Of a stretch of 64,000 bases of DNA, positions 15,995 through 57,191 are shown in pieces (the first letter of the stretch is position 1; each line of letters opens with the position of its first letter). The translations under genes and the position numbers were made by a program. Origin of the DNA: Nitrosopumilus sp. (GTDB lineage Archaea; Thermoproteota; Nitrososphaeria; Nitrososphaerales; Nitrosopumilaceae); the NCBI GenBank assembly GCA_963667665.2, contig OY763927.2, positions 640,001 through 704,000 of the forward strand, in the 5' to 3' direction. The notes under the pieces were generated by a model. The model did not search any database, had not been told where the DNA came from, and saw only the letters and a list, made by a program, of their open reading frames with translations.

Positions 15995-16015
15995 CCCATT
16001 TATTTAGATTAGTTT
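15995..16015 (+). repeat. putative attL of island 2 (in GAPDH promoter region)
   Basis: CCCATTTATTTAGATTAGTTT; 18-bp core 15997-16014 identical to 33188-33205; extra half-site CCCATTTATTT at 16026-16036. Confidence 0.75.
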
Positions 16016-16058
16016 GACCTATATTCCCATTTATTTACTATTTTGATTCGAATATAGT

Positions 16059-17123
16059 ATGGACGAAAAGCCTAGATGTTTAGTTCTCTTTGAGGCTTCA
16101 TGTAGATCAGAAGCAACCAAACAATCCTATCTTTATGAATTAGAAAAATTTGTTAGATGGTCAAACAAGGATTATGAAGCATTACTATTTTTAGAAAAAA
16201 CGGAATTAACTGATTTACTTGTTGATTATGCTCTATACCTGAAACAAAGAGTTAGTGCAAATTCAATGCCAATTTACTTTGCAGGAATTTTCAAATTCTT
16301 TGAGATGAGTGATAGAAAATTCAACAAGAGAAAGATTAGATCACTTTATGGTGAGAGGGTAAAACGAGCAGGAGACAGACCAATTACGAGTAAGGAAATT
16401 AATTCTATGATTAGAGGTTGTTCAACTCAAAAACAAAGAGCCTTAGTTTACCTATTTTCCTCAACAGGAGCTAGACCTCAAGCCATAGCCGATCTAAAAA
16501 TGAAACACCTTGAATCTATTGGAAATGGTTGTTTATCTCTAAAACTTTACGAGGGTTCTTTGCATGAAATGTACTCATTTTTGCATGAAAACGCAACTAA
16601 TGAATTAAAACAGTATTTTGAATGGCGTGAAAAACAAGGTGAAAAGTTAAACCCAGAATCTTATGTTTTTGTAAATTCTGATGAATTAATGTTTTTGAGA
16701 GTAAAACCCATGCACAGTACATCAGTATCTTCAGTGTTTAGAGAGCTTATCGAGAAATCAGAAATTAAGAGAACAAAGGTGAATACAAAGAACTATGATT
16801 TATCTGCAACAGGTGGATTTAGAAAGAGATTCAATACTATAATGAAATTAAATCCTAATGTTTCTCAAACCATTGGTGAGATGTTAATGGATCATTCAAA
16901 TTATTTAGAGAAGCATTACTTTAAACCAACAAAAGAACAATTGTTTGCAGAATTTGAGAAAGCAATTCCTGAATTAATATTTGATGATGCAGAGAAATTA
17001 AGAATTACAAATGAGAATCAACAAAAAAAGATTAAGGAATTAGAAACAGATCAAGACAGAAAAATTATGAATCTAGAATTTATTGTCGGAGAATTATCCA
17101 AAAGATTAGAATCTAAACTATAA
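16059..17123 (+). CDS. tyrosine recombinase/integrase
   Basis: STGARP (Arg I), GFRKRF, LMDH, KHY catalytic Tyr; coiled-coil C-tail. Confidence 0.9.
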   Translation: MDEKPRCLVLFEASCRSEATKQSYLYELEKFVRWSNKDYEALLFLEKTELTDLLVDYALYLKQRVSANSMPIYFAGIFKFFEMSDRKFNKRKIRSLYGERVKRAGDRPITSKEINSMIRGCSTQKQRALVYLFSSTGARPQAIADLKMKHLESIGNGCLSLKLYEGSLHEMYSFLHENATNELKQYFEWREKQGEKLNPESYVFVNSDELMFLRVKPMHSTSVSSVFRELIEKSEIKRTKVNTKNYDLSATGGFRKRFNTIMKLNPNVSQTIGEMLMDHSNYLEKHYFKPTKEQLFAEFEKAIPELIFDDAEKLRITNENQQKKIKELETDQDRKIMNLEFIVGELSKRLESKL

Positions 17124-17164
17124 ACTTAGTTTGGTGAAGTGCCATCATATAGTGTTCAATGATT

Positions 17165-17540
17165 TGTTTTTTGAATGATTTATGATCATTAATTATTCCA
17201 TAGAACATAAAATCAAAGAGTTTAGCAATTTCTGTATTATTTCTTTTAAATTCAGCAGGACTAAGTAATTTTAATCTATATGCCAGAAAGTTTCTATTGT
17301 GAATATTTAGTGTGTTAAAATCACATTCACTAAAGTATCTATAAAGATCCTCCTGCGCAGATTTTGTAAGATAATAGATACCTTTTTTGGTTTTCTTAAA
17401 AAGTGGTTTGTGTTTTTTTACAATTAATTTTCTAAAATCCTTTGCCCAATCATGATCCCAATCTTCTTCAAAGGATATAAAATCTTTTTTTGAAACACTG
17501 ATTTGATAAACTTTTTTTGTTTTTTTTACAAAAATACATT
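17165..17540 (-). pseudogene. degraded gene remnant
   Basis: Consecutive minus-strand frames (ISFEEDWDHDWAKDFRKLI; YLTKSAQEDLYRYFSECDF) broken at A/T runs. Confidence 0.35.
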
Positions 17541-17625
17541 ATCACCTAGCTAATATTGCCACATATGAAAATCTTCTTTGCAGGGGGCTTTTGTTGGCCT
17601 TTTATAGTAATGGAGTATTGATTAT

Positions 17626-19227
17626 ATGACAACATACTACAAGGTGATACGCACCGTGACACCTGCCGATCTCGATACGCGTCCAAGGTTCGTCGAGGTA
17701 TTGAAAATAATGCCCTCTGAGGGGTACGTAACACGCAATCATTTCAAGAATATTGAAAAAAACCATATCACCCGTGGTCTGATGCACGCGTGCTCAATCG
17801 GGATACTCCAAAGAGTCTCGCCACACGATCAGGTCTTGAATCTGGAATCCGTAAAGTTCTGGTGCACTCAGTTAAATGACTCCAACTTGAAGAACACGGT
17901 CTCACCGTCAGATACCAGAAAGTTGTATTTGAATGCACTTTCCAGATTAAACGGATGGTTGCCATGCAGGCAGTTCCCCTCGCACAAGACTGTAATGTCA
18001 GATGGGCAGATAACGCGGCCGCCTATTACAAAGTCGTTTGCAAATGTGGAAGAGTTGTTGCACTATTGTACAGAGTCAGAACATGGCACAAAGACTGCAC
18101 AACGCGTTATACGTGAGTATGTGACAGATGCACATATAGTACAAATGTCCAGTAGTGTACAAACCAACATACGCACCGCCATAAAGTCGTACTTTAAAGT
18201 GAATGATATTCCACTTGATATTCCAAAGGTCAAGAAAAAACAGGCAGACAGTACGCTAGATGATGACCCCATGACCCTTGAGGACTTTTACAAGATGTTG
18301 CAAACAGGAACTCCTGGAATAAAGATGAAGACGATCATGATCATAAAGCTTCAATCTGGCATGGACTCCAGTACACTTACGGACAGGTTCAACTACGAGG
18401 GGTATCGACAGATAGTCAAGTATTTCAAGACAGACGACCATAATTCATGGAGCCTTGATTTGTGTCCCGTTCCAATCAAAACTGTCCGTGTCAAGACTGG
18501 TGTGCGGTACACGACGTTCCTTGAGCGTGATGCCATCGCACAACTACAGGAATACCTGACATGGAAGGAGACAAAGCACGGCAAGCAAGATATTGCAAAA
18601 CCACTGTTCATGACAACGAGAAACAGGCCTATATCTTCAATATGGCTATCGACGTGCTTTTCACAGGTGGCCGTTCGTGCGGGAATACAGAAAAAAGTGT
18701 CGCATAGGGTATACAAGATTAGGGCACACGAGGTACGCGACCTTTTAAAAAGCACGCTTATGGCAAGCAAATGCGCACAGTATGCGGCAGATCACGTGCT
18801 CGGACACGCACCGAAGGACTCGTATGAAAAGTCGGCCGTGTTGTATCCGAAGGAATTACGTGCAGAATACGCCAAGGCGTCCTCACGCATCAACATATTC
18901 TCAAAGGTGGAAAGTGTCCTGAACACGGCAAAGGATCCTGCCAGTCAGGACGCCCGCATAAAGGAGCTGGAGGCGCAGGTAAAATCATCAAAACAGTCCA
19001 AAACAGAAAAAAATATGACGGAAGAAACTAACAACGATATCGTAAAAAAACTGTCTCAAAAACTCGATTACGTGGTATCTATAATTAACTCACTGCCCAT
19101 CGACACCAAGGAAAAAATAGCTGACAAACTTGAAGATTTAGACAAACTTGAAGATTTAGACAAACTTGAAGATTTAGACAAACTTGAAGATTTAGACAAG
19201 TTTAAGGATTCTGACGACACGGACTAG
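17626..19227 (+). CDS. large tyrosine recombinase-family protein with C-terminal DKLEDL repeats
   Basis: QSGMD, RVKT, HEVR, LGH, DSY motifs; GC-richer than core. Confidence 0.85.
   Translation: MTTYYKVIRTVTPADLDTRPRFVEVLKIMPSEGYVTRNHFKNIEKNHITRGLMHACSIGILQRVSPHDQVLNLESVKFWCTQLNDSNLKNTVSPSDTRKLYLNALSRLNGWLPCRQFPSHKTVMSDGQITRPPITKSFANVEELLHYCTESEHGTKTAQRVIREYVTDAHIVQMSSSVQTNIRTAIKSYFKVNDIPLDIPKVKKKQADSTLDDDPMTLEDFYKMLQTGTPGIKMKTIMIIKLQSGMDSSTLTDRFNYEGYRQIVKYFKTDDHNSWSLDLCPVPIKTVRVKTGVRYTTFLERDAIAQLQEYLTWKETKHGKQDIAKPLFMTTRNRPISSIWLSTCFSQVAVRAGIQKKVSHRVYKIRAHEVRDLLKSTLMASKCAQYAADHVLGHAPKDSYEKSAVLYPKELRAEYAKASSRINIFSKVESVLNTAKDPASQDARIKELEAQVKSSKQSKTEKNMTEETNNDIVKKLSQKLDYVVSIINSLPIDTKEKIADKLEDLDKLEDLDKLEDLDKLEDLDKFKDSDDTD
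19123..19212 (+). repeat. 18-bp tandem repeat (4 perfect + 1 degenerate)
   Basis: GACAAACTTGAAGATTTA x4 then GACAAGTTTAAGGATTCT. Confidence 0.95.
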
Positions 19228-19371
19228 ATCCAGGCGTGTCGGCTACGCAACTACTACAATTTTTAGGTCTTTTATAGAAATCGTATACGTATTGTATGTC
19301 AGTTAATAGGGTTCAAAAAATACTGCACGAATACCGCACGACCCTCAAAATGTGCAGGCACGAAAGCGACT

Positions 19372-19569
19372 ATGCCGTACTGTACGATTACATGGAGATG
19401 GAGCACCCTACTGTGCCATTCGTGCTGGACTGAGGAAAAACCGGTACGCATGGACGAGGACACCGTGAAGATATACAGGCCGAGACAGTTGAGAGCTGTA
19501 CGGGTAAGGTGTCTGAACTGCAACACGCTTGTCACGGAGCAGAAAAAGTGCACAAAATGTTTTCAATAA
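19372..19569 (+). CDS. small Cys-rich Zn-finger-like protein
   Basis: CHSC, CLNC, CTKC pairs. Confidence 0.45.
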   Translation: MPYCTITWRWSTLLCHSCWTEEKPVRMDEDTVKIYRPRQLRAVRVRCLNCNTLVTEQKKCTKCFQ

Positions 19570-20093
19570 CATTAACTGTACGGTTTGAATCATTCTGTGA
19601 ATACGGATAACCTGGAAAACTCCCTGCCAGCAGACACTGTTCGTGATGTTTGCTGTCAGAATCAACGTATGTTCCACTCGTCATAGTACGACTCGTATTG
19701 TAATGTGGTTAACCTGTCAAATTCTGTTACGTTAATACCACATTAAGCATAGTCCTGTAAACAGTACCAACATGACGTACAAGATAATTTAGAAACGTTT
19801 TCTGCCCGCATTTTAGGGGCTTACATATTTGAGTACACACCTGTGTTTATTTCGTCATGTTGCTTCGGTTTCCTTTAGTTTGTAGGCATATTGATGACTG
19901 TATTTAATATATTTTTTATGATTTTTGTTGTTGTGTACTTATGTATATAGGCCCCGAAATCTCTGCATACAACCTTAAATGACGAATTTGATGTGCTTTG
20001 AGAGTATTTCCTGTTTTTCTAGGCACGACGTGAACATATATCTTTTTTAACAATACGTATCAAGAATTGTTATGTCTCTGGAGAAATACTGAA

Positions 20094-21374
20094 ATGATTA
20101 AAATTTTATGTATATCGTTGCTTGTACTACTGTGTGGCATCATCCCACTATCCTTTGGTGAGAATGCAGACGAAATCTGCAAGCAGGCAGTCTACTATGA
20201 GCAATGCTTATTCGAAAATTGGGTGATGATGTATAATGCAGACGAAATCTGCAAGCAGGCACTCTACTATGACGAGATTTATGGTGTTTATACCGAATTT
20301 GGCGTCACAGATTACGAGATGTCTACAGGCGACTTTGTGGCCTTGTGCAATGATGATGAGTATGGAACTTTTGACATCTTCCTGTCTGCTGATCAGCCCG
20401 GCACTCTGACCATGACTGTCTCAAAGGAACCATTCGATCTTATGGAACGGTTTGATTATATTAAATCCTGTAATTATGACGAATACACTATCAACGGCAG
20501 TACTATAGATTCCCATAATGCAGGCATTACTGCCAGTCAGCTATCTCAGACAGACAACTCACGAATAATTCAATTTACTTGGGACAAACCAGTACGTCAG
20601 ATCTCGTACTCGCATAATTCTGTTTCATGCATTCAGGGTCACAATGATTTAGGACTTGAACCCTCAGAACCGTTTCCTACGCGTAAACCAACATCATATA
20701 CTCAAGGTAAGATTGATAGAATATCTTACTGTCCTTCCAGTTATGTTGTATACCTTAACCATACTATTGTAAATGCTACTTTGATCCAATTTTGTGCAAG
20801 TTATGGTAACGTAGACTACAAAATCAATGCCTTTGATGATGGGTATATTGTATTGGATCTTCCCAATGATTTTTTAAGAGATGATAAGCCTTTTGAAATC
20901 TATGTATATTCTTTGAATACTATTTTTAACGTAGATTATAATCGTCCATATCCTCCCGTGTACAAACCTGTAGATGATGATCCTGTAGCTGATGAGATAA
21001 ACAAGTCACTACAAATTACACGATTGGGCACATATGACACTTTTAAGAGATATCATATCCCTTTTCTAAAGGGTGAAAATTTCCATAATCTGGGGCAGAT
21101 TACTAAAGCTATAATTTATGACATGACAGACATTCTTGCCAAATACCAAACACCTATTGGGAATATTCCTACTAGTCAATACGACATTCCAATGGAAATT
21201 ATGTCACCTAAAAAGCAATTTGAGTCAGGGATAACATTAGAAAACATTCAATGTAGAGAATTCAAGATTCTTATGCAGTCTCCTAGAAATTTACCGGCAT
21301 GTATTAATGAGTCATCTGTAGATAGTCTAATCGATAGAGGATTCATAAGGATTCTGCAGACAAATCTTGGTTAA
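20094..21374 (+). CDS. secreted/surface protein with thaumarchaeal-type C-terminal Cys domain
   Basis: Signal peptide; C-terminal SPKKQFESGITLENIQC...PAC...LIDRGF; duplicated NADEICKQAxYY. Confidence 0.7.
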   Translation: MIKILCISLLVLLCGIIPLSFGENADEICKQAVYYEQCLFENWVMMYNADEICKQALYYDEIYGVYTEFGVTDYEMSTGDFVALCNDDEYGTFDIFLSADQPGTLTMTVSKEPFDLMERFDYIKSCNYDEYTINGSTIDSHNAGITASQLSQTDNSRIIQFTWDKPVRQISYSHNSVSCIQGHNDLGLEPSEPFPTRKPTSYTQGKIDRISYCPSSYVVYLNHTIVNATLIQFCASYGNVDYKINAFDDGYIVLDLPNDFLRDDKPFEIYVYSLNTIFNVDYNRPYPPVYKPVDDDPVADEINKSLQITRLGTYDTFKRYHIPFLKGENFHNLGQITKAIIYDMTDILAKYQTPIGNIPTSQYDIPMEIMSPKKQFESGITLENIQCREFKILMQSPRNLPACINESSVDSLIDRGFIRILQTNLG

Positions 21375-21561
21375 TTTTTGCATCTATACCAACAACGAAA
21401 AATTCATATCAACATTTAGAACAAATGTATGATCTGACCATCATCTCTGAAAAATATGGTATATGTTGAACACTCAAACGAAAAGAAAAGATACATTAGG
21501 CAATGAATTTAGAACTTGTACTTGTTTTTGATCTTTATACGTAAAATTTTTTCTTTATCAT

Positions 21562-21628
21562 ATGACAAACTGTTCATATTGCGATTTAGACATAGGCAAT
21601 GAACAAAAAATTTGTTTTGACTGTTCCT
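21562..21628 (+). pseudogene. 5' end of Zn-finger gene cut by IS3
   Basis: MTNCSYCDLDIGNEQKICFDCS stops at IS end 21629. Confidence 0.45.
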
Positions 21629-22160
21629 TGGTGGGGACCCCTCTAGAAGGAGAACACTTGCATCCATATACATTAGACCCAACACTGGAGGACAAATATC
21701 ATGGTAAAGAGCAAATTTACACCAGAGCAAAAGATCCAGATTGTACTGGAATCGATCAGAGCCAGCATGCACGGTAGAACTGTGCCGCAAGCACAATATT
21801 CACCCACAGACGTTTCATAACTGGAAACAGAGATTCATGGAGTCCGGCAAAGCAGGCCTGAGTCAGTCAGGAAAGAAGGATCCAATCAAGACCATGAAAA
21901 AGAGAGGGGAGGATTACAAGAGACTGATAGGCGAGCTGACCATTGCCAACGACATTTTAAAAAAAACTTGGGAGGAAGGCAGAGATTGAGTGCCGTCAGA
22001 GAACTGTGTGAAAAGATGAGCCTGCGCAGATCACTGCGCTATGCCGGAATATCAAGACGCATGGGTATCACAAACCCAAAGCAAGGGAGATCGGTCTGGA
22101 TCCGGCAACCGTGCAAGCAGTGCAGAGGATAGGCGGCAAGAGACCCACCTACGGTACGCG
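21629..22160 (+). mobile_element. truncated IS3-family element (left end, frameshifted orfA, start of orfB)
   Basis: TGGTGGGGACCCCTCTAGAA end resembles 9500 end; VELCRKHNIHPQTFHNWK...ANDILKK; RPTYGTR then abrupt break. Confidence 0.85.
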
Positions 22161-22752
22161 TAGTACCGGCCATTAAGATCCACTCACTTTGCACGCGTCA
22201 TTGACTTTGGGCCTGACAACTGTTGTGCAAATCCAAGCGGTGTAGAGCTTGTGTCTTTTGCCTGCATTACAGGCACGAGACTGCAGGTAACTGCCGTGTA
22301 AATCCAAGTAACGTGTGGAGCTGACGCGCACGAATCGGATGCGGCGTGAAAAAATGCGCGAGCAGCGGGCGTACATAAAAACAATCTTGAACGCCGGTGT
22401 AAAAAACCCCGATTATGGAATCATGTAATCCATCTGCTTGACCGGCAGGAGCTGTCCGGTATCGATCAGAATCTGGATTGACTTGGCAAGTTCTTCGGCA
22501 TTATTGAAACATCGCTCGGCAAGCATGATTAATTTGGGCAGAGTTTGAAATGCTGTTATTCTGTATAGCCGAATGAAAAAATTGAAATCTTCTAGTCTAT
22601 TTGATCGATCCAATCCTGAAAGTACCAGTATAATTAGTAGAATACAGGCATAGAACGTGATTTTTTAGAATTTCTTGGGTCGCTAGACTTCACAGGAGAA
22701 AATAGGTTATCATAACTTCCCAAAACCATTTACAATATATTTAAAATCAGAT

Positions 22753-24189
22753 TCAGATCCCAAAAAAACCCTTTACAGATACAAAAGTGAAAATACCGAT
22801 AACAATGGCAAGAAGAATTTCTATAATAGAATTAGTTTGCACTGTTTTTTGTAACTTTAAACTAGTTTGATTGTAAATGTAATCAGTCATTTTGTTTATG
22901 GGTTTATCCGTCGAGTCAAGTTTCTCAGCAATCGCAGAAAAATGATTTTTGATCATATTTGCAACAAGTTCAAAATACGCTTGTTCCCCAACACGATTTA
23001 TTAGAACCCCAGCAAAGTTATCTGGTTTTGGAGGTATTGGAATTTCAGATATTCCAAATATTCCTCTTCTAGAACTCATTTCATCAATCTGATCTATAAC
23101 TTTGTTTTTGGTTGAATTGAGAAGTATGCCCATGCTTGCATAGTTACCTTGTAAAGCAGATATACCGTTTTGAAAATCAGTGATCTGGGAAGTGTTATTT
23201 TCATTTAGCATATGCTGTATTTGTTTTCTTTGAGATTCAAGTTCTTCGGACAACTTGTTCCTAACAATTTCAAAATACGATAACCATGTAAATATGCCAG
23301 TAACAAACAAGTGAATATTCATTGCACTAGTGACAGAGAAAAATGTTTCCAAATTAGGACCAAACATTTTAATTTCTTTTTCTATTCCTTGACTATCAAA
23401 TTTTGGGAGACATACACTAATTTGATATTCGTGCGTGATTGTTACGCCACATGTTTGTAATTCTCCGCCACCTCCAAATTGTTCATAATGGGTAATGAAA
23501 GAAAGCACACCACCGTCAAAATTTATTGCAGATAAAACAGTCGGTAAACTAAAAACCTGCAAGAGAGATAATTCGCGTAATTTTTTACTATGTTGTGTAG
23601 AACGTAATCTAAATTTTTTATTTTGGTACTGAAGTGATAACAACTCTCGTACGGATTTTGTACCTTCTTGTAGGTCATCCTCAGAATTGATAACATGATG
23701 CATATGAAATCTAGGTTTAATTCTAGACATTTCATAAACTTGGTTGGATAAACCGTTGAGACTTTGTAAATACAATTGAAATGGAACAATTAATTTGGCG
23801 GAGTCAGTGATTGCAGATTGTTCAGACTCGAGAGATAATTGGACATATATCAGTAATTGAAAATACGGCAGTTCATTACATTCTAATCCCACTAGGTACA
23901 CTTGTTGGATTTTGCTTTTGAAAACTTGAGCAAAGTTTCTCTGATCTGGTTCATTTTGTTTATCGTCAATGTATTTTAAAAATATTTCAAAGTCATCAAC
24001 TTTCCAAACATGTTTCTTTTCCAGAATCCAGTTTGTATGACCAGAAATACTGGTATTCCCTGATTTATTTTCGAAGACAGAGGGTTGTCCAAAACATTCA
24101 TTTAGTTTTTGTATAATGTGTTCTTTTTGATCTTTTTCAAATATGTCATTAGTTTCTAACGCTGAAAATTTTATCGTTGATGCAGTCAT
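22753..24189 (-). CDS. hypothetical protein with coiled coil and C-terminal transmembrane helix
   Basis: 478-aa ORF; IIEILLAIVIGIFTFVSV C-terminus. Confidence 0.7.
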   Translation of the reverse strand: MTASTIKFSALETNDIFEKDQKEHIIQKLNECFGQPSVFENKSGNTSISGHTNWILEKKHVWKVDDFEIFLKYIDDKQNEPDQRNFAQVFKSKIQQVYLVGLECNELPYFQLLIYVQLSLESEQSAITDSAKLIVPFQLYLQSLNGLSNQVYEMSRIKPRFHMHHVINSEDDLQEGTKSVRELLSLQYQNKKFRLRSTQHSKKLRELSLLQVFSLPTVLSAINFDGGVLSFITHYEQFGGGGELQTCGVTITHEYQISVCLPKFDSQGIEKEIKMFGPNLETFFSVTSAMNIHLFVTGIFTWLSYFEIVRNKLSEELESQRKQIQHMLNENNTSQITDFQNGISALQGNYASMGILLNSTKNKVIDQIDEMSSRRGIFGISEIPIPPKPDNFAGVLINRVGEQAYFELVANMIKNHFSAIAEKLDSTDKPINKMTDYIYNQTSLKLQKTVQTNSIIEILLAIVIGIFTFVSVKGFFGI

Positions 24190-24288
24190 CGTTAATTAGA
24201 ACTATATTATTCTATTAAATTTTTATTGAATTCTCAATATGTGAACACATGAAAAATACCCGAATATAGTTGCTGCGATGAATTAACC

Positions 24289-24520
24289 GTAATAGGTTAG
24301 GTCGCCCAGAATGCTTCTGACAGCTTTTCAAACCAGTTCAGCCCCAAATCTCCCACGTGAGCATGCATGTCATTATGGTGCAGAACATGATCTTCCCTCC
24401 GACGGTTAACCATCTTTTGGCGTATTTTGCGGCGTATCGCCACCTTGCGCAACATGCGTTCGGACTCGCTGTTGGTAGGCTCCATGCCAGGGTAACGTAT
24501 GAACGTGAACAGGTCAGGTC
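24289..24520 (-). mobile_element. IS66-family transposase 3' remnant with GTAA end
   Basis: PGMEPTNSESERMLRKVAIRRKI; terminal GTAATAGGTTAGG. Confidence 0.75.
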
Positions 24521-24687
24521 CTCTTGCTGATGTCCATCCCCATATTTTTCATCTTTTTATCACCTTTTTGCGGATTGTTTCTGGTGGATCGGAAGATGCA
24601 ATCACCTATTCAGTGCGCGAAGCACAGGAACGCAACAACTCGGGTTGCTCCATTCAAGATAAAGTGCGCGAAGCACGTATGCAAGGA

Positions 24688-24741
24688 GGTCGATCCGTTA
24701 TGGGGTTTACGACGAGAGTGTTTTTACATGCATTCACACTA
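24688..24741 (+). repeat. ~54-bp dispersed repeat, copy 1 (others at 28415-28468, 29422-29475)
   Basis: GGTCGATCC...TTACGACGAG..TGTTTTTACATGCATTCA; 45/54 identical to copy 2. Confidence 0.8.
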
Positions 24742-24880
24742 TCATGAGCGAAAGTCTAAAATTAAGCGAATGTGAGGATCTGCGAGGAATACAAGATATG
24801 GTTATTCGGAATTCAAAGTCATGCGTGGAAAAAGAAAATGTCAGAAATCTGTGGCTGTATAACGTGTAAATTGTGATGGC

Positions 24881-25612
24881 ATGAATGATAATCACAATCC
24901 AGATGTTCAGTCTGCTGACGGCGCTGATGTAGATCAGATTACTGTAATGTTTGACACTAGTGTTCTCCTTTACGTGATAATGGACGAGGTAGGGCTGAGT
25001 CATGACATAAAATTTACACCGCATGTACGCAAATTCGTCAAAGGGAAGAACCAGGCAGTATCAAAAGAGGTAGCCAGTCAAATCGAAATAAGACTGAAAG
25101 AAAAAAAATCCAAAGGAAGGGCCAGAAACGAATCTATAGGAGGATCAGGAGTAGGATCCATGATAGAAAGAGCTGTGAAGACCCTAAGAGAAAAGTATGA
25201 GATAATAGATACAGATGAATGGAAAAGCTACTCTGAAAAGATAGAGAACATACTGAGCACATTGGTTTCAAACCCAGAGCACGCCATGTCACAGAACTGG
25301 TTAACAAGGAAAAAAACATTGCTGTTCAAGAAGAACAAAGATATAAACGGATTAGAGACGATCGAAGCAAAGAGGGACGCACTTAGAATTCTAAAAAAAG
25401 AGATGCTGAAAGGAAAAGACATAACAATATTGGCAAAGGCAATGAAGATGTCAGAAACTAGAAAGATCCACTTTGTATCAAATGATGGAGATCATGTCTT
25501 CCTTGGCAAATCGGTTATGGCGCTCACAAAAAATCGCATGCGGGTGTACAAACCTGGAAACTGGGAGATATATCATGTTCAACTTATCCTAAAACTCTCC
25601 AGTACATCATAA
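24881..25612 (+). CDS. PIN-domain protein (C-terminus altered by IS5)
   Basis: VMFDTSVLL, KDITILAKA, FVSNDGDH acidic PIN motifs. Confidence 0.7.
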   Translation: MNDNHNPDVQSADGADVDQITVMFDTSVLLYVIMDEVGLSHDIKFTPHVRKFVKGKNQAVSKEVASQIEIRLKEKKSKGRARNESIGGSGVGSMIERAVKTLREKYEIIDTDEWKSYSEKIENILSTLVSNPEHAMSQNWLTRKKTLLFKKNKDINGLETIEAKRDALRILKKEMLKGKDITILAKAMKMSETRKIHFVSNDGDHVFLGKSVMALTKNRMRVYKPGNWEIYHVQLILKLSSTS

Positions 25613-26457
25613 TTGATGCCAAATACACAAACCCAAGATAATTATCACAGTTCTTCTCATATCTGATTCTTGTTCTATGAAATCCATTCTTCAACCATGC
25701 AAAGAATCTCTCAACAACAAACCTTGTCTTGTTGTAATTGTTCTGCATGTTATTTGGTACGATGAATTTGGAATTATTCCTGTATGGAATGCAGCATCTG
25801 ATAGAATGATTTCTCAGATAATTCCTGATGTATTTTGCATCATAGCCCTTGTCTGCATACACTGATACGATCTCTTCTATCATAGAATCATCTACAAAAT
25901 CTGAAATTGATTCCATGACATCGATGAATTTCGTACTATCATGTTGATTTGCAGGACTGCATACAATTGATATTGGCAATCCATTACTATCTACGGCAAC
26001 ATGTATTTTTGTACCTAGAATCTTCTTGAAACCATCATATCCAGTTACGTTGCCCCTTTTTTATTGGAAATTGATGATGAATCAACTGATATCTTTTGCA
26101 GATTAATCTTGTTTTGTTTGTAAGCTGATTTCATTATTCCAGAAAGAATCTTTTTCCATACTCCTTTTTGCTGCCAGTCTTGTAATCGTAGATGTGTAGT
26201 TGATTTGGAACCATACTTTTCTGGTAATTCTTCCCATCTGCATCCAACAGTTAGAACAAATAGAATTCCATTAATTGTTGTTCTATCATCACATCTTGGT
26301 CTGCCTGTTCTTGCAGGTTTTGGTAAATGTGGTATAATTGATTTCCACTGTTTGTCTGTTAGTTCTTTATGAATCATAGAAATGATTTGATAGATGTTAT
26401 TGTTAGATCCATACTATCATCAAATGTTTACAAAATGATCTGTTTTAGGATGAGTTG
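25580..26457 (-). mobile_element. complete IS5-family element (IS427-like, two ORFs, 878 bp)
   Basis: TIR CAACTYATCCTAAAAC at both ends; 3-bp TSD GTT; orfA 26045-26377 (GRPR, GCRWEELP) and orfB (ADKGYD, RFVVERFFAWL) joined at AAAAAAGGGG. Confidence 0.92.
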
Positions 26458-26529
26458 GTTACATGAATGTTTCAATTTTAGCTTGAGATAAGAAAATGAT
26501 TAAACCTAAGGATTAGAGTATCACATTTC

Positions 26530-27355
26530 ATTAAGCTGTAACAGATGCATCTGAAAAACAGCCGCAGTCTTTGCGTTGCCGGTTTCTTTGCGCGAACAAC
26601 TGCAGTAAACCTGCACTTGAGTGACGAGAACACTAATTCTACTATGCTGCGCTGGTGGTACGTATCTTCAAACTCTTCAGGGTTTTTCCTGCCACCTGAG
26701 CATCTCTGCCCTTGGACCGAATCCATTTACCACATGGTTCTTGCGGGTGCAGATCACAGGCCTCCTGCCGGTATTGCGGATCATCCTGTAGTTCTCGTTT
26801 GCATCGTATCCTGCATCAAGCATTACGCATCCTGCGCCATCAGGAACCTTTTTGATCATCTCCTGAAACGCCGGCGAATCATGCACCCATCCCCAGATAA
26901 CTGCACAGGATGCGATCTTTCTCCCCTTTACGTCAGTAACTATGTGCAGTTTGACGAATTCGCGCCTAGAGATGACGCCTCTCTTGGCATCCTCCCACTC
27001 AGCATACCTAATTATGGCAACCACGGTGGAGTCGCCCAGCAGTGATCCGTGCGCATAAGATACTGCCTGCCTTTCTATTATCTCGTGCAGCCAATCATAA
27101 TCTGCCATTATAGTGGCCGCATGATGCAGACAGGATTTTGAGGGAACAGTTTTTAATCCGTACATGTGTAATGTTCCTTGATGTGTCTGTAGGTATGAGA
27201 CATGCTGACGGTATGAATGGCAGCGAAACTCTCGGTCTGCAAGACATGCCATGTACGAGATCATTTGCGTTTCACTTGGTGTAGTGGGCAAATAGATCTC
27301 AGATAGGAGGGTAACGAGGGCCTTTATTCGTAACCTAGTTACGTGGCCTTCGCCC
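26530..27355 (-). mobile_element. degenerate IS5-family transposase (IS903/ISH1-like), frameshifted
   Basis: GDST, FVKLHI, HDSP, LDAGYD, YHQRSIVELVFSSLK in two frames. Confidence 0.75.
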
Positions 27356-28409
27356 CTATACGCCATCGCTTTTTGTACTCCTCTGGAATATCTTTGATGG
27401 TTCGTTTTATGTACTGGCGTTCCAAATTTGTGGCATACGTCAGATACTTCCATTTTCTCCCATCCTTTGTTTCCTTGAGACGCTTCTTTATTACCAAATT
27501 AAACCTGAACACTGTTCCGTTACTGGATCTCATCTCATACTTTGATACTGCCTTTCTTTTGCCACAGCGAAACTCTGCGACGGCATTTTTGATTCCCGGC
27601 GTCTTGCTTACTGCCATCAGGAACCTCTCACCACGCCCGTTCAGAAAACGCATCATCTCTACATTGGCAAACTCCCTATCCATGAAAAGCACTGGCTTTT
27701 TGAACCCCTGTTTGAGCGCCTCTGAGAGTAATTTACGCACAAATTTGACCTTGGTCACATGCTCTGTAACGTGTACGACCGCTATTGTAGGCAGCTGTTC
27801 TTCTGTGACTGCCTGCATTGTGGCGTACGTCTCGAACCTGGATGTTCCGCCCTTGGGCTTGCCACTGATTACAAGGCTGTCATTGTGCCTGTCTGCGCCT
27901 GTAAACGGGATCAGGTGTTTGTCTATGGCCAGTATGTGACCTGTCTTCTTCTCAAGACCTAATCCGTTCTTGACTGTATTATTTAACATGCGTCTGCACA
28001 GGGTGTCCATCCTGTCTGAACCTATTGCACTTATCATCCCTAACAGCCACTGAGATGTCGGGATGCAGATGTTCTTGTCATCTTTGAGCATGACTGACAG
28101 ATCTGCCACGGCCTTGTTGGCAGTCGATCCGGTCTTGCACATGTGTAACAAAACCAGAGGCATCCTTGAGATCGTACAGGGCGTTATACTTTATTGAAAA
28201 TGGTATATTTACATATTCCAACGCGTCATGCAAGACCTTGAATTCTTCTTTCGTAACGATGTCCCGGAAACTTTGTTCATTTTTCTGGTTTGACATGTTA
28301 ACTGGTTAAGTTTTGAACATTTAGCGTCGTATGTCAAAAAATAATGTCAATTAGATTATGAGATTATGAGCAAAAAAACCATTTACGGAGCACATTTTCA
28401 ACTTCTGAC
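27356..28409 (-). mobile_element. truncated ISH3/IS4-like transposase, frameshifted
   Basis: LAIDKHLIPF, LFMDREF, YATN, YKKRWRI cut before the catalytic Glu. Confidence 0.75.
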
Positions 28410-28414
28410 ATAGG

Positions 28415-28468
28415 GGTCGATCCATCACCGAGATTACGACGAGTATGTTTTTACATGCATTCAAACTA
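28415..28468 (+). repeat. dispersed repeat copy 2
   Basis: GGTCGATCCATCACCGAGATTACGACGAGTATGTTTTTACATGCATTCAAACTA. Confidence 0.8.
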
Positions 28469-28750
28469 GATCCGAGTAGTGCTGTTCTATTGTACGGAAA
28501 TTAGATTCGCCTAAGTTTAAGCGTATCATAAAGATTATTTTTCGTTGGTTTTTCGTTGATTCTTTTATCGTTTCGGCGGCCGGATCCGAAGCAATCACAC
28601 TCATCAAGTATGATTGCACACCAGGGTTCTCAAACATGATGGGACTGAATCAGAATACCATTCCGTCAAGCGTGTTTTACTTGGGCCCGGCCTGATTTGG
28701 GACTGATCCGTGGGAGAGTCTTTATTATCTGTCGCGCCACACACGTACAG

Positions 28751-28945
28751 ATGCTCCAGAAATGTCCAGAGTGCGGGAGCGCCAAGGTGGCGGAGATAGT
28801 CTAATGGTATCTTAGTTCAGATTGGGAGAAGGACGTGGACTCGGGCAAGGTGGCGTTGGGCGGGTGCTGTATTCCTCCAGATACGCGCAGCTGGCGATGC
28901 CGGTACTGCGACCACGAATGGGGAGAGGTGGAAGGGTTGGACTAG
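28751..28945 (+). pseudogene. small Zn-binding protein with internal stop
   Basis: MLQKCPECGSAKVAEIV*...GKVALGGCCIPPDTRSWRCRYCDHEWG; TAA at 28802. Confidence 0.6.
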
Positions 28946-29159
28946 CTATCGCGGCACTCGGATTTGGTGGCCCTTCAAACGAGCCTTGGGAGATGTTTTT
29001 CATGGGGTTTGTTAGGTTTTTCACCACAGGAAACCACATGCAGGCTGTTTTATCATAACATGTGTCTGCGTGCAGGGCTCATTGCCTTTACGTGACGGGA
29101 GCGGCGCAGGTGGGGAAGGGCATCAAACATGGCAAACTCGGGCTTCAAGTGATCGGATT

Positions 29160-29333
29160 GAAGTGGCCGCTACTATACACGAGGGTATGGAGCCTACGAA
29201 CAATTCCGTAGAGCGGGAGATACGATACCCGGTAATACATTGCAAGATCCGCGGCCAGATTGGAAGTACTGGGAAGATGGCAAGGTTTGTCATACTGCAT
29301 ACCTGCATCATGATGTGGCGCAAGCAAAACTGA
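29160..29333 (+). mobile_element. IS66-family transposase 3' remnant
   Basis: EGMEPTNNSVEREIRYPVIHCKIRGQIGS...TCIMMWRKQ. Confidence 0.7.
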
Positions 29334-29421
29334 ATTTTTATCAGGAATGGATCGCATTCTACTGGCACATGCTTGAGTCACGCTGAGCCGAAACGCGTAC
29401 CGAAGCACACGTTTCCAAAGA

Positions 29422-29475
29422 GGTTGATCTATCACCATGATTACGACGAGGATATTTTTCCATATGTTCAGAGTT
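29422..29475 (+). repeat. dispersed repeat copy 3 (more diverged)
   Basis: GGTTGATCTATCACCATGATTACGACGAGGATATTTTTCCATATGTTCA. Confidence 0.7.
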
Positions 29476-29512
29476 CATGCATGTGTGTCACTATAGGTGC
29501 AAGTCCGGTGGT

Positions 29513-29773
29513 TTACGCTTTTTTCCTTGGTCTCATCAGCACCAGTATGCCTCCCCCCAACAACGCCGTGCCAAGGGGCATCCTAATGACAAAAAGCTCA
29601 CCCCATGCGTCGTTGCCGGTCTCCCATATGTTGCGGCCGTCAAACCAAAGCGATCCGTTCGTCACGAGGTTGAACAGTATGATGCCTACTATCGGAAAAA
29701 GCTGCCACAGAAAGTAAAGTGATGATGCTGTGAGCCCCCATCCCACAAGCTTGTAATATTTGGAGTTAATCAT
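29513..29773 (-). CDS. small membrane protein
   Basis: Two hydrophobic segments in 86 aa. Confidence 0.5.
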   Translation of the reverse strand: MINSKYYKLVGWGLTASSLYFLWQLFPIVGIILFNLVTNGSLWFDGRNIWETGNDAWGELFVIRMPLGTALLGGGILVLMRPRKKA

Positions 29774-30145
29774 AATAAGAAAAAAGGTTAGGACACAAAT
29801 ATGCCTATCGCTAAACTGCCTAATTGGGTGGTTCTTGACGATTGTGATGCATCATACTTGTTGTATGTCCTTACGAAAGTGATCCTGCTTGATCCAAACG
29901 CATTGCGCCAAACGCTTTCAGTGTCTTACGCGCTTGTCGCTTCTTGTCACGTTGGGCGATGGCTCCATAGCACTGATCGCCATCCTTTCCGGCATTGCCG
30001 GTTCTGCCGCGACGTTCATCTTTTCGCCGAAATCAAGCAAGGAGTGACACTCGTGTACTATTATGCATGATCCGCTGAAGAAGATCCCGTTCCAGATCCC
30101 GATAACTTCACAGAGCCTATTATAGAACTGTTTTTAAGTTTCAAT

Positions 30146-30421
30146 TTGGGTAAATTATTTATGGTACGGATTACACTGATCATTATTCCCATCATAATTG
30201 TCATCCTTTATACAATGCTATCTTTTTTCTTTGATGTAGTAACATCTGCTGCTGGCTGTGCAGATTACCATTTTAATTGTGACTGTGAAAAAGTTGGGTA
30301 TTGTGCATATGTTGAGTTCGTTTATTTTCTCAGCGTGGGACTCCTTTTGTGTGGATTAGTGATAGTTGAGCTAATTTTGGTAAGGAGAGCAGATAGAATC
30401 GTAAAAAAAATGAAAACGTAA
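30146..30421 (+). CDS. small two-TM membrane protein with Cys-rich loop
   Basis: TM-CADYHFNCDCEKVGYC-TM. Confidence 0.55.
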   Translation: MGKLFMVRITLIIIPIIIVILYTMLSFFFDVVTSAAGCADYHFNCDCEKVGYCAYVEFVYFLSVGLLLCGLVIVELILVRRADRIVKKMKT

Positions 30422-30606
30422 AACTGCCAAGATCAATAATCTCAAATATGCTCACGAAGTCACGGGATCCGACGATGTTCTAGGTCACTGCCACAGATTG
30501 GCATCTGACAACCACTCTAGGTTAACACCCGATCCATTTTGAGGAAACCACTTGAAGAGTTAACAGTAGAGATTATGGGTAACCGATTACTACAGGATAC
30601 ATGAAA

Positions 30607-30661
30607 GTAATAAGTTAGGTGACCCAGAACACCTCTGACAGTTTTTGAACCGGTTCAACCT
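30607..30661 (-). mobile_element. isolated IS66 end
   Basis: GTAATAAGTTAGGTGACCCAGAA...TCTGACAG similar to 24289 onward. Confidence 0.65.
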
Positions 30662-30684
30662 TAGTTTGTCTCATATAAGCACAC

Positions 30685-31135
30685 TGATCTGGACCCCTTG
30701 TTTTAGTACCGTTTTTTGCATCTTTTTCCGAATGATTTCAGCCCTCATTTATTCCCACCCTCCACTTTGCGAGCAAACTCATTGGGGGTGACATACCCAA
30801 GAGCCGAGTGTATCCTGTCGTTGTTGTAGTCTGCAAACGCTCTGGCCAACACCACTTCGGCGTCTTGGAACCTTGCAAACTCATGGGGCCGTGTGGAATC
30901 GTTCCACAGGACTCTCAAAAAGGAATATCTGTGGCGGCATGAATTTGCCAGTTATCAGGAAGCCGAAAAGATCCTGGCAGATGCTTTCGCAGATTACAAC
31001 CAAGAAAGAATTCATTCTGCCATAGGATACGTGACGCCTGTAGAGTTTGCATCACAGTGGGAGATGAAGAATAAATGAGGGGGACTGTATGGATGATCAT
31101 GCAAAAAGCGTTCTCATTTTATGGGGTCCACTCCA
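30685..31135. mobile_element. back-to-back fusion of two IS3 3' ends
   Basis: 30685-30890 near-identical to 8257-8462; 30891-31135 encodes ESFHRTLKKEY...HSAIGYVTP and ends GGGGTCCACTCCA. Confidence 0.88.
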
Positions 31136-31151
31136 GCTGACAAGTAATGCA

Positions 31152-31382
31152 TTGACAGAATACGTCGAGCAGGATTACATACGCAAAGATACGATAGAGA
31201 AAAGATCGTACCAGACAAATCTTGCGCAACATGCGATGTCTAAAAACTGTCTGGTTGTTTTGCCGACAGGCCTGGGCAAGACGGCAATAGCGCTGCAGGT
31301 GATCGCCAAGTACCTGTCAGATGGTACAGGAAGTATTTTGTTTTTGGCACCTACGCGCGTGCTAGTAAACCAGCATTTATGA
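31152..31382 (+). pseudogene. N-terminal fragment of Hef/FANCM-like SF2 helicase
   Basis: RSYQ, NCLVVLPTGLGKT, LFLAPTRVLVNQH then stop. Confidence 0.8.
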
Positions 31383-31532
31383 AAAATAACGAGCTGTTTT
31401 GTGCGCCAAAATTTATGCAAGAGTAATTAGGCACATTATTTTGTACATATTCAAGCATGAAAACTAACCCAACGCCTGAACTGCACGTGTTGAATAATTT
31501 AAAAAATATTCCAAATCAGTGTCTTAAATTAA

Positions 31533-31817
31533 GCATTAATTCTTACAAATAAAAATGCAGAATATACTAAAGCCGAGGGACATCTAGAACTTAGGGTTCA
31601 TGATGATGCTGGGAGAAAGAGACTTTCTACTGAGTATGATGTTACAAGAGATGATTTTTTCTCATGGAAAGATAATTCTGGGGAAAAAATTACAGGGTAT
31701 AGAATTCAAGAAACCAAATTTTTCGAATCTTATATTCATGATGTATATGTAGACTTTACATTAAATGATGGAACCAATTGGAAAGATCTTCATGCTACTT
31801 TCTGGTCATTAAATTGA
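31533..31817 (+). pseudogene. 5'-truncated hypothetical gene
   Basis: Open frame LILTNKNAEYTKAEGHLEL...WKDLHATFWSLN* without a start, coupled to next gene. Confidence 0.4.
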
Positions 31818-32815
31818 AACCTGTAATAATTATCGCAACAGTATTTGTTTTGATAATTTTTACTCCAACAATAGCAAATGGGGATGAATATGTAGAAAAA
31901 TGGAAACGGTATGTTGAATCATATAAAGAATTTATGGAAATCTACAAAACATGGGCTCACGATACAATAAATTATTACAAATCACAATTACTTGAATCTA
32001 ATAAAAGTCTAGAAATATTGAAGGATGAAAACAGAGGACTGAAACAGGATAACAAAGAACTGAAAAATCAAGTCAAAGGGTTAAGAGAATCATATGAAAA
32101 TTACGTTGAAGAGGTTAAAACCTATGTCGAAGGTGTTGAATTATACAACAAAGCAATTGATGACTATCAACAAAAAATTGATGATTATCAACAAGAAATA
32201 GATAAACAAAGTAAAGTTCCCCAAACAACAATAACCAAAGAAGAAGTAAAGCTCAAATTGTTTGATTCAAAGGGAAACCAGTACAATTGGGTTGTTCCAA
32301 TTGAAACATACGAAACTTATGTTCAATACTCCTATGTTCCCACACAAGTAATCAAATACCCTGACGGCAGAACTCAAAAGGTTGGAGAATTTTCAAGTTT
32401 TGTTAAGGGAAGTTTTACCAAAGTAATTGATGAAATCTATGACAACTCTTCAAGCGAGGGCAATTTTATCTATGAAGTGTGGTTTATCACTTCTCAGATT
32501 ACAATTTATTCCACAGACATTAGAGAAGACCCAAGGTTTGCAGTAGAGACGTTGGTAAGAGGTGGTGGAGACTGTGAGGACACAGTCATACTAATTGCAG
32601 ATATGATCAGATCATCATCTTACACTAAAGACTGGAAAATGAATATGCTTTACTTTGATTCAGACAATCCAACAAATCCTAAACAAGTCAATCATGTATC
32701 TTTGGAAGTAAAAACTCCAGATAGTTCCTATGTTCTTGAGACAACTGCAAAAACAGTAGAAGGTCTTAATTCATGGAATGGTGTTGGAATTTTTGGATGG
32801 CGTACATCTGTTTAG
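31814..32815 (+). CDS. secreted coiled-coil transglutaminase-like cysteine protease
   Basis: Signal peptide, coiled coil, GGGDCED / NHV / LETT triad pattern. Confidence 0.75.
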   Translation: MKPVIIIATVFVLIIFTPTIANGDEYVEKWKRYVESYKEFMEIYKTWAHDTINYYKSQLLESNKSLEILKDENRGLKQDNKELKNQVKGLRESYENYVEEVKTYVEGVELYNKAIDDYQQKIDDYQQEIDKQSKVPQTTITKEEVKLKLFDSKGNQYNWVVPIETYETYVQYSYVPTQVIKYPDGRTQKVGEFSSFVKGSFTKVIDEIYDNSSSEGNFIYEVWFITSQITIYSTDIREDPRFAVETLVRGGGDCEDTVILIADMIRSSSYTKDWKMNMLYFDSDNPTNPKQVNHVSLEVKTPDSSYVLETTAKTVEGLNSWNGVGIFGWRTSV

Positions 32816-32847
32816 CCTAAAATGTTTGCGGGGTTAATCATTTTCAA

Positions 32848-32886
32848 AAATAAATGTGGTATTTGCCCATTTACTTAGATTAGTTT
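32848..32886 (+). repeat. internal att-like site
   Basis: AAATAAATGTG-GTATTTG-CCCATTTACTT-AGATTAGTTT; 20/21 match to 15995-16015. Confidence 0.75.
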
Positions 32887-33103
32887 ACACATCAACATTC
32901 AAGGTAGACAGCCAGCAATCGTGTGGCGGTCTATCTTTGATATCGACTTTGATATATTCTTCATGGAATCGAGGTTTTGTTTTTGTATTCTTTTTGAACT
33001 CTTCTTTTTTTACTGCCAATTTTAAATTCATAATCGTCCTTTCTTCATTTAACATCTTTTTTGATCTTTGTTCTGGTGTTCGTATCTTTGATCTACCTAT
33101 CAT
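32885..33103 (-). CDS. small basic protein (72 aa) between two att-like sites
   Basis: GGAG SD-like motif before ATG 33103; stop codon overlaps the att core. Confidence 0.55.
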   Translation of the reverse strand: MIGRSKIRTPEQRSKKMLNEERTIMNLKLAVKKEEFKKNTKTKPRFHEEYIKVDIKDRPPHDCWLSTLNVDV

Positions 33104-33167
33104 TATATCTCCTAATACAACAAAATACAACTTAAGACCATGTCTGTCATCGATATTACAAATTTTA

Positions 33168-33205
33168 AAATAAATTGGGCATTTGCACATTTATTTAGAT
33201 TAGTT
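33168..33205 (+). repeat. putative attR
   Basis: AAATAAATTGG-GCATTTG-CACATTTATTT-AGATTAGTT. Confidence 0.75.
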
Positions 33206-33218
33206 CTTAAATCTAATT

Positions 33219-33518
33219 ATGGGGTTTTTATCTAATTTCCGAAAAGATGTACAATCTGCAAAGATAAACAAAGCTGCCCAGATTAACGGTAAAAACCTCA
33301 AAGAATTATTAAAAAAATTCTCAGAAGATCGGGATAAAATTGAAAAAGATACAGGTGTTAGACCACAAATTGATGAAAGTACTCAACTGTTTATGCAAAA
33401 AATTCTAAATGTGTGGATTTCAGAAGGAAAAGAGATTGACGAAGAAAAATTCTGGAATGAGGTTGATTCTAACAGACAGTTTACTCATACAGTTGAATAT
33501 TATGAGATTAAACGATAG
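33219..33518 (+). CDS. hypothetical protein (probable core gene originally divergent from gap)
   Basis: 99-aa ORF, core-like composition, 13 bp after attR. Confidence 0.65.
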   Translation: MGFLSNFRKDVQSAKINKAAQINGKNLKELLKKFSEDRDKIEKDTGVRPQIDESTQLFMQKILNVWISEGKEIDEEKFWNEVDSNRQFTHTVEYYEIKR

Positions 33519-33650
33519 AACTAAAACAAATGTCAAATTAAACCAAATTTGTTAATTTAGTTTCATTTTACTCAAAAAAATAGACTGGAAAGAAAATTTT
33601 GATGACGAACTCACATATAATCACAAAATAGGTATTATCAATTATAAAAA

Positions 33651-57150: not shown

Positions 57151-57191
57151 AAAGAGGTAGTAAAAACTCAAAAAAAGGAAGATGAAAATTA

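Follow-up and report, generated by a model that had tools for sequence, protein, structure and literature searches.

An integrase-less one-gene unit at the gap promoter of Nitrosopumilus, probably accreted by site-specific recombination

How does a single small gene come to lie between two copies of one site, in tandem with a larger element that ends in the same site, when the small unit itself carries no recombinase? The question is raised by a stretch of 64,000 nucleotides from the archaeon Nitrosopumilus sp. (Nitrosopumilaceae; assembly GCA_963667665.2, contig OY763927.2, positions 640,001 to 704,000 of the forward strand), the whole of which is referred to below as the window. In a preliminary description, made from the letters alone, a 320-bp unit (here U) was noticed between two att-like sites, and it was interpreted as possibly an integrase-less cassette mobilised in trans by the integrase encoded from 16059, as part of a cassette-stacking system lacking IntI, or alternatively as what a deletion had left of an older element at this site. 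The observation has been confirmed and its interpretation partly supported. We consider it rather probable that U is an integrase-less unit put in by site-specific recombination at an attachment site in the promoter region of gap, and that a larger element, E, was accreted afterwards.

Nitrosopumilus-type archaea are among the most abundant microbes of the sea and have small genomes; to our knowledge, little is understood of how their accessory genes come and go. A hotspot that is anchored in a promoter and stacks one-gene units behind a recognisable site would give a concrete and testable route of gene flux. It would also extend integrase-less tandem accretion, known from bacteria, to archaea, with a promoter in place of tRNA targets.

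The two sites bordering U, S1 (32848-32885) and S2 (33168-33205), lie on the plus strand exactly 320 bp apart from start to start, with 87% identity over 39 aligned nucleotides. Both show an 11-7-11 inverted-arm layout and both terminate in AGATTAGTT, as first described. A third, partial copy of the repeat, absent from that description, has been identified as a 20-bp core, CCCATTTATTTAGATTAGTT, at 15995-16014, separated by 17 bp from the start codon of gap on its upstream side. The order in the window is gap, core, E, S1, U, S2, 13 bp and orfR. The gene gap (14925..15977, minus strand) encodes a type II glyceraldehyde-3-phosphate dehydrogenase (NCBIfam NF003251, 308 bits against a cut-off of 185), and its orthologues that adjoin orfR in relatives are 84-89% identical at the DNA level. 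The core, on the plus strand, corresponds to the native gap-proximal promoter sequence in its T-type form and would be the left attachment site (attL), that is, the left edge of the inserted DNA. Element E (16015..32847, 16.9 kb) has been delimited as an integrated element through its composition, its Pfam matches and its absence from two metagenome contigs, L143 and L168. S1 is a full site composed of the left arm, 7 bp, a C-type core and AGTT, it matches the consensus found elsewhere, and it plays a double role as the right end (attR) of E and the left border of U. The interior of U comprises 282 bp (32886..33167), with the same borders in L143, L142 and L168. S2, the right end of U, is a full site with a T-type core and a CAC variant, and it abuts native DNA upstream of orfR (33219..33518, plus strand), a conserved chromosomal gene of 99 aa that is present in 54 of 81 genus genomes and divergent from gap in the empty site.

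A degenerate pattern derived from S1 and S2 matched twice in the window and not at all in 100 dinucleotide shuffles; since the pattern was derived from the same data, this test is circular. Independent support for the reality of the site comes from its recurrence in other genomes, with a reversed control that gave 0 hits. The site, designated S, is 34 bp long with the consensus AAATAAATGGGGTATTTGCCCATTTACTTAGATT. When one mismatch was allowed, its pattern gave 20 hits in 10 of 151 genus genomes, and at the family level it occurred in 11 of 401 genomes from 2 of 27 genera (reversed control 0 in both cases). An exact, stricter pattern returned 105 metagenome stretches in one scan (control 0), which makes S a simple marker for such units in metagenomes. 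The genome studied here (G000) holds three copies of S in addition to the gap core. The spacing of S and its core were preset by the search patterns and are not independent findings. Conservation ends at both borders of the site, and the central 10 nt are variable (e.g. GGGGTATTTG, TGGGAAAAAA, GGGTCTATAG). Searches of viral contigs with the S pattern gave 0 hits, and phage records gave no match.

Many copies of S are situated between housekeeping or island genes, and copies in unrelated contexts are up to 34/34 identical. The 40-nt flanks of 83 distinct copies fall into 38 left and 50 right clusters, joined in 70 combinations; the largest left cluster (n=30) pairs with 20 right clusters. With flanks of 250 nt, four left and four right clusters still have at least two partners. 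Judged from these comparisons, S behaves as a junction between exchangeable modules.

As single-stranded DNA the site folds poorly, with hairpin energies of -3.1 to -6 kcal/mol (z -0.4 to -2.5) overall and -3.1 to -4.9 kcal/mol (z -0.4 to -1.6) for the two sites of the window. The arms more likely act as double-stranded binding sites. An Rfam search of 31500-34000 with E up to 1 gave no match, and the only tRNA gene of the window lies at 59937-60011.

The third full S of this genome lies outside the window at G000:C1:767198-767231 (L066 12199-12232, minus strand). It is flanked by a 429-aa gene, with a FAD-oxidase gene beyond, and by a 134-aa gene, with a DnaJ-domain gene beyond; an adjoining 77-aa gene resembles an HNH nuclease by eye, with no hit in the family scan. 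The right flank of this copy follows six different left flanks elsewhere, and the place may thus be a second hotspot. A further short motif, TTAGATTCTAAA, is the core of a 13-bp perfect palindrome, TTTAGATTCTAAA, and occurs 15 times in G000 against about 2 expected, as estimated from base composition. It often borders small-gene modules and in many contigs directly continues the TTAGATT end of S. The combination TTAGATTCTAAA...CAATACGCTTAAGTT was considered as a general host promoter and dropped, TTAGATTCTAAA occurring only 15 times and CTTAAGTT only 25 times in the genome.

What the locus looks like without inserts can be read from its relatives. G095 has gap and orfR side by side in divergent orientation, and the 63 bp that separate them include CCCATTTATTTAGATT. 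In other relatives the gap-orfR spacer measures 244, 361, ~960, 1035 or 1406 bp, or gap lies more than 1.5 kb away; most of those with a visible gap carry GACCCATTTATTTAG beside it, usually followed by ATT, one copy having a substitution. The sequence GACCCATTTATTTAGATT is retained upstream of gap in insert-free relatives. Contigs of run X5, a close relative, connect position 16010 of the window to 33219: one runs from 16014 into CTTAAATCTAAT (window 33206-33217) at a depth of 238-523, giving the empty arrangement of gap, core, 13 bp and orfR, in which the core is continued by CTTAAATCTAATT. These joints imply that everything from 16015 to 33205 is inserted DNA and that the attachment site is the region between gap and orfR. 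This spacer is probably a promoter region shared by the two genes, as suggested by an A/T-rich box that precedes each of the two start codons by about 25 nt. Contigs of two further runs, X1 and X15, stop inside S1 (at 32853 and 32873), and nothing was drawn from them.

The relatives also show U on its own. Contig L143 reads gap, core, U, S, 62 bp and orfR, with no E. In X5, a 366-nt contig of depth 29 spans 32866-33217 with 2 differences, and positions 31897-32507 have a depth of 0. The ends of this contig fit an assembly bubble (k=31) between an empty and a U-only allele, which amounts to a hint rather than to proof. U occurs without E, and the two are separate modules.

Rows of such units have been found at the same place. 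Metagenome contig L168 contains, in this order, the CNNM gene, gap, core, u1, S', u2, S, u3, S, U, S and orfR, i.e. four site-bounded units of 328-495 bp each, with no E; L142 has the same array and one more S-ended insert on the gap side. Variable single-gene units between S sites beside gap, whose absence from other genomes would have spoken against the preliminary description, do occur (the four of L168, and others in L142, L143, L123, L176 and G071). Altogether 22 S-to-S intervals were listed, about 16 of them distinct by our reading, and 20 hold an open reading frame (ORF) of at least 30 aa. A stretch between two copies usually contains one ORF; the largest per interval ranges from 70 to 526 aa, and the main ORFs of the 20 intervals lie on the plus strand in 14 cases and on the minus strand in 6. 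Several are preceded by promoter-like motifs of their own. Recognisable cargo families include a GNAT acetyltransferase, an isochorismatase, a glycosyltransferase and a collagen-like protein. In the multi-S contigs listed, the copies are always in direct orientation. Apart from these units, the combination of a small zinc-ribbon gene (~43 aa, CxxC...CxxC) with TTTAGATTAGTTTCGTTTGATTAATTTTAAAC behind it turns up both between gap and orfR and at a different locus (L023, L045, L112, L076, L121); modules below the size of the S-bounded unit are therefore shuffled as well.

The position of the exchange can be narrowed down through a single-nucleotide polymorphism (SNP) within the core. The copies on the gap side are of the T-type (CCCATTTATTT), as in the native motif, in the window element, G071, L143, L168 and L123, whereas the far-side S is of the C-type (CCCATTTACTT) for E in the window, the insert of G071, L143 and L168. 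In L121, L123 and L176, a C-type S meets native DNA as TTAGATT|CTTTATTAAAAAA, identical to the empty site. Since the gap side keeps T, the far side has C and native DNA resumes after TTAGATT, the exchange lies between the T/C SNP and the end of TTAGATT. The preliminary description had recognised in the 11-bp arms and their spacer the geometry of a tyrosine recombinase site; strand exchange within the 7-bp spacer, which such a geometry would place there, is not borne out, given that the SNP and the junctions locate the crossover in TTAGATT. An exchange of arms in the spacer had been considered, the left arm of S1 being the exact complement of the right arm of S2; it was rejected in view of the same junction and SNP pattern and of the frequency of the GTGG and TGGG arm variants among other copies of S.

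The sole gene of U is a basic ORF of 72 aa (32885..33103, minus strand), read from an internal ATG within a longest frame of 101 aa (32885..33190). The GGAG motif reported at the outset lies 7 nt before the ATG, and the motif CTTAAGTT 25 nt upstream of it. The stop codon at 32885-32887 shares its last T with the left site. This overlap, which was also noted at the outset, is peculiar to the present genome: the ORF of L143 stops 17 nt short of the site. The protein belongs to a small family (24 homologue clusters, none of them named) and has no match in Pfam or NCBIfam. Its alignment is conserved, including the basic N-terminal half, and the ORF is intact in every aligned row. A structural model of modest confidence (pLDDT 67.9) predicts one long helix at residues 10-38. 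A paralogue of the gene with 80% DNA identity over 189 bp exists outside the window at G000:C1:827881-828068 (L012 10774-11028), between an arginase-family gene and a 340-aa ORF which in our judgement resembles a flap endonuclease, with TTAGATTCTAAA just upstream; related copies occur in three other genomes.

Compared to the window, the interior of U (281 nt) is 93.6% identical in L143 and 95.7% identical in L142 and L168, and the flanking genes show identities of 89.5% (gap), 91.1% (CNNM) and 86.3% (orfR). Because its divergence is similar to that of the flanking genes, and because it is always the unit beside orfR, U seems to be older than E. From these comparisons U looks like an old resident of the lineage and E like a later arrival.

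E differs from its surroundings in composition, with a GC content of 0.31-0.49 against 0.29-0.34 in the flanks, and in run X5 both of its ends have a depth of 0-6, compared with 238-523 for the flanks. Its contents include two tyrosine recombinases, fragments of insertion sequences (IS), a truncated helicase and a 345-aa coiled-coil ORF. The first recombinase, Int1 (16059..17123, plus strand, 354 aa), passes the Pfam PF00589 threshold narrowly (27.7 bits against a cut-off of 27.1) and reaches 42.8 bits on the NCBIfam XerA / integron-integrase model, the cut-off of which is 220. Int1 starts 44 bp past the core, and in a circular E it would for this reason stand directly behind S; an int gene directly behind attP is the usual arrangement. 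Homologues of Int1 with up to 41% identity were found in 82 of 151 genus genomes; it has no relative in viral contigs and no match in phage records. The second, Int2 (17626..19227, plus strand, 533 aa), is a tyrosine-recombinase-like ORF below the Pfam cut-off (PF00589, E 1.1e-4, 22.4 bits), with paralogues of 32-37% identity within the genome. A weak S-like stretch near one of these paralogues (G000:C1:509785-509822) was unconvincing as a copy of S.

Integrase genes are found near S in a few other places: contig C91 of G077 has an Int1 homologue (42% over 114 aa) that seems to be truncated, at a distance of 3.9 kb from an S whose strand it shares; L174 has a 357-aa homologue (37% identity) about 950 bp from S on the opposite strand, and L154 a truncated integrase unrelated to Int1 about 700 bp from S. 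The ~270-bp unit of L123 opens like E (GGTTTGACCTA..CCCATTTAT, compared with AGTTTGACCTA..CCCATTTAT in E) and closes in S; miniature derivatives of E-like elements therefore exist.

Several repeats were noted within and around E. A 206-nt repeat (98% identity) belongs to an IS that carries rve-type integrase fragments; its copy at 30685-30890 is within E, and that at 8257-8462 falls in a second GC-rich stretch, which spans about 6-10 kb. Joints inside E (24676-28412 and elsewhere) are seen in contigs of X1, X5 and X15 at IS-related repeats, with skips of, for example, 3.7 and 8.6 kb; samples thus differ in the IS content of E. Four tandem 18-bp units (GACAAACTTGAAGATTTA) at 19123-19212, at the 3' end of the Int2 ORF, encode a DKLEDL repeat. 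ORFs further downstream contain extended in-frame tandem repeats at 54570-54926 and 56417-57242, the periods being 21 and 45 bp.

In the mechanism that we propose, a family of site-specific integrative elements in marine Nitrosopumilus-type archaea would use the common promoter region of gap and orfR as its attachment site. The right end of each element would be S, consisting of an inverted promoter motif, about 7 variable bases, a direct copy of the motif (CCCATTTAC) and TTAGATT. Recombination with the chromosomal motif CCCATTTATTTAGATT, with the crossover inside TTAGATT, would re-form the native motif beside gap as attL and place S at the far side as attR. Because attL is re-formed, newcomers would insert beside gap and older inserts would shift towards orfR. 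Applied to the window, U, with a site-to-site length of 320 bp and no recombinase of its own, would have entered first, and E, with its two tyrosine recombinases, later. The small units would be moved by a tyrosine recombinase supplied in trans from a larger element, and U would have entered as a mini-element instead of being trimmed from a larger one. The preliminary description finds support insofar as U is a discrete, att-bounded one-gene unit sharing its site with an integrase-bearing element; the role given in it to the integrase at 16059 does not, U being present without E in L143 and in the X5 contig and seemingly being older than E.

Several observations weigh against this account. A double-stranded circle of 320 bp is a poor recombination substrate. 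The identity of U is near that of the flanking genes, which fits vertical inheritance of a fixed insert, and U was found solely beside orfR (window, L143, L142, L168, X5). S2 has a T-type core and CAC, unlike the other copies of S; it has been treated as mutated, with five differences in 34 nt from the U-side S of L143, a number not clearly above the divergence of U itself. No recombinase is consistently beside S, and most copies have no integrase within the few kb examined; among 29 other Int1-family loci inspected, none carries S or the core upstream, and the presence of Int1 homologues in 7 of the 10 genomes with S, compared with 82 of all 151, indicates no real association of S with Int1. 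Some copies of S lack a recognisable left-hand partner, e.g. in the purL-purF spacer, where a comparison of 32 loci gave no clean pair of empty and filled sites. The read evidence consists of assembled contigs, not raw reads, and in the X5 contig of depth 29 the 14 letters of the left end are not visible. Independently of S, a conserved non-coding stretch of about 170 nt (TGATCGC..AAAGTGATCAGCATTTTTATTGTTCAAA) was observed upstream of purF in L081, L082, L090, L091, L093, L073 and L075; being present in some genus genomes and absent in others, it could be a leader or a riboswitch-like element.

Part of this evidence would also be expected if the small units were leftovers of internal deletions in larger integrase-bearing elements, i.e. 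immobile scars stacked by re-use of the site. Decay of this kind is the textbook origin of integrase-less att-flanked cis-mobilizable elements (CIMEs), at least in the part of PMC5704250 considered here, and it would account for the L123 unit, whose E-type left end and S are both preserved, some 270 bp apart, for the truncated integrase genes near S in L154 and in contig C91 of G077, and for the constant place of U beside orfR with a divergence like that of its flanks. It explains less well the four adjacent units of L168, each of which would need a deletion that spared one small gene together with the right-hand site, and a U whose ORF is intact in all aligned rows, well conserved and provided with a promoter-like motif; moreover, X5 appears to hold empty and U-only alleles with breakpoints at the repeats. 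We judge decay unlikely as the origin of these units, while it overlaps with insertion by site-specific recombination in that a decayed unit would still be movable in trans. Less likely than not is an archaeal capture system that would work like an integron while being built from different parts. In it, S-ended single-gene units would be caught serially at the TATA-box region common to gap and orfR, as well as at TTAGATT sites elsewhere, and would be excised and re-inserted whole by tyrosine recombinases that larger elements provide in trans, U being an active cassette. The rows of units at gap agree with the stacking first suggested; an integron proper is contradicted by the lack of IntI and attC and by ORFs on either strand.

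Two further explanations dispense with this kind of recombination. S might have a regulatory or structural function, for instance as a palindrome bound by a protein, as a promoter acting in both directions or as a terminator; the units would then be ordinary small genes of an intergenic region that evolves fast, with no site-specific recombination at S. Such a role would suit the copying of the gap promoter motif AAATAAATGGG in both arms, the T-run that follows S on the minus strand, with a minus-strand ORF ending 0-70 bp before S in the window, G127 and G064, and the frequent position of S before or after promoter-like motifs. It is quite improbable, however, for a motif missing from 141 of 151 genus genomes and limited to 3 copies in this one, whose flanks combine freely around copies that are up to 34/34 identical in unrelated contexts, and at which the presence and absence of inserts break exactly at TTAGATT. 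Least credible of all is a single-strand transposition with hairpin ends, of the IS200/IS605 type (including palindrome-associated transposable elements, PATE) or the type of repetitive extragenic palindromes and their tyrosine transposases (REP/RAYT), in which an HUH enzyme would insert the unit 3' of TTAGATT. The conserved part lies wholly on one side of the junction, the palindrome is imperfect with a variable centre and the flanks change after TTAGATT, all of which resembles such ends; yet the hairpin is weak, the copy number low, and no Y1 transposase (PF01797) was detected in this 99.97%-complete genome (0 matches in G000, 6 of 14 control genomes matched) or among the 122 and 142 neighbouring proteins scanned against Pfam. 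Direct repeats of 16-20 bp and a promoter-like attB suit a tyrosine recombinase better. Insertion at the gap promoter by site-specific recombination, with E following U, is the reading retained for the comparison below.

Integrons consist of rows of mostly single-gene units, each ending in an imperfect palindromic site, with the newest unit nearest to the proximal insertion site. Their attC sites measure 57-141 bp, are built from R''-L''...L'-R' boxes and have a GTTRRRY core. The arrays at gap are similar in their mostly single-gene units, in the palindromic end site and in insertion at one proximal place. They differ in that the integrase, where there is one, is inside an inserted element and not beside the array; in L168 and L143 the gap-orfR interval contains no integrase. 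By this general definition of attC, S, with its 34 bp and TTAGATT end, has neither R/L boxes nor GTTRRRY, and the units are not promoterless cassettes of one orientation, their ORFs being on both strands and several having promoter-like motifs. Modules of the Xer/dif or pdif type, which rely on a dif-like site universal in the host and are enclosed by inverted sites, are likewise not indicated, S being present in only 10 of 151 genomes with all copies of a contig in direct orientation. No thaumarchaeal dif sequence was found in PMC2958812.

Closer parallels are offered by elements integrated at fixed chromosomal targets. In the thaumarchaeal elements of Krupovic et al. 2019 the median direct repeat is 17 bp, the target is intergenic in 15 of 68 cases and tandem re-use of a site is mentioned (PMC6563490). 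E resembles the cryptic integrated elements of that survey in its tyrosine recombinase, its 20-bp direct repeat, its intergenic target and the empty site in a relative. The elements described in the passages of PMC6563490 are complex and multigene; integrase-less single-gene units and a target in the gap promoter are absent from these passages, where the word 'glyceraldehyde' occurs 0 times, and Table S2 of that work could list the target.

The tycheposons of Prochlorococcus, as far as the sections of 10.1101/2020.12.28.424599 used here describe them, share with the present arrays a streamlined marine host, degenerate remnants and an order in which newcomers at the same site push older inserts deeper into the island; tycheposon cultures are heterogeneous for excision. 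Their anchors are tRNA genes and their separators partial tRNAs, whereas the present arrays are anchored in the gap promoter motif and separated by the palindromic S. A full-text search of the literature from 2021, narrow in scope and with subscription journals outside it, gave no paper joining tycheposons with Nitrosopumilus among the results listed, and a similarly narrow search gave none on such cassette or island arrays in Nitrosopumilus among the results listed.

The nearest model is the CIME, an integrase-less att-flanked unit in tandem with an integrase-bearing integrative and conjugative element (ICE) or integrative and mobilizable element (IME), as set out for ICESt1/ICESt3 of Streptococcus thermophilus in the part of PMC5704250 mentioned above. 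Like a CIME, U is enclosed by the direct att repeats S1 and S2 (the counterparts of attL and attR), has no integration genes and stands in tandem with an integrase-bearing element at the same site, E with Int1, S1 being the common border; repeated site-specific integration is common to both. In contrast to the CIMEs presented there, the host is an archaeon, the target is a promoter between divergent genes where CIMEs use the 3' end of tRNA or protein genes, the units, at 0.3-2 kb, are far smaller, contain one gene, lack conjugation genes and form rows of four or five, and the right-end site is a conserved 34-bp palindrome common to many unrelated units. The pattern at gap is best read as accretion of the CIME or tycheposon type and not as an integron. 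What sets it apart is the archaeal host, the promoter anchor, the one-gene units in rows of four or five and the conserved 34-bp palindromic site at their right end.

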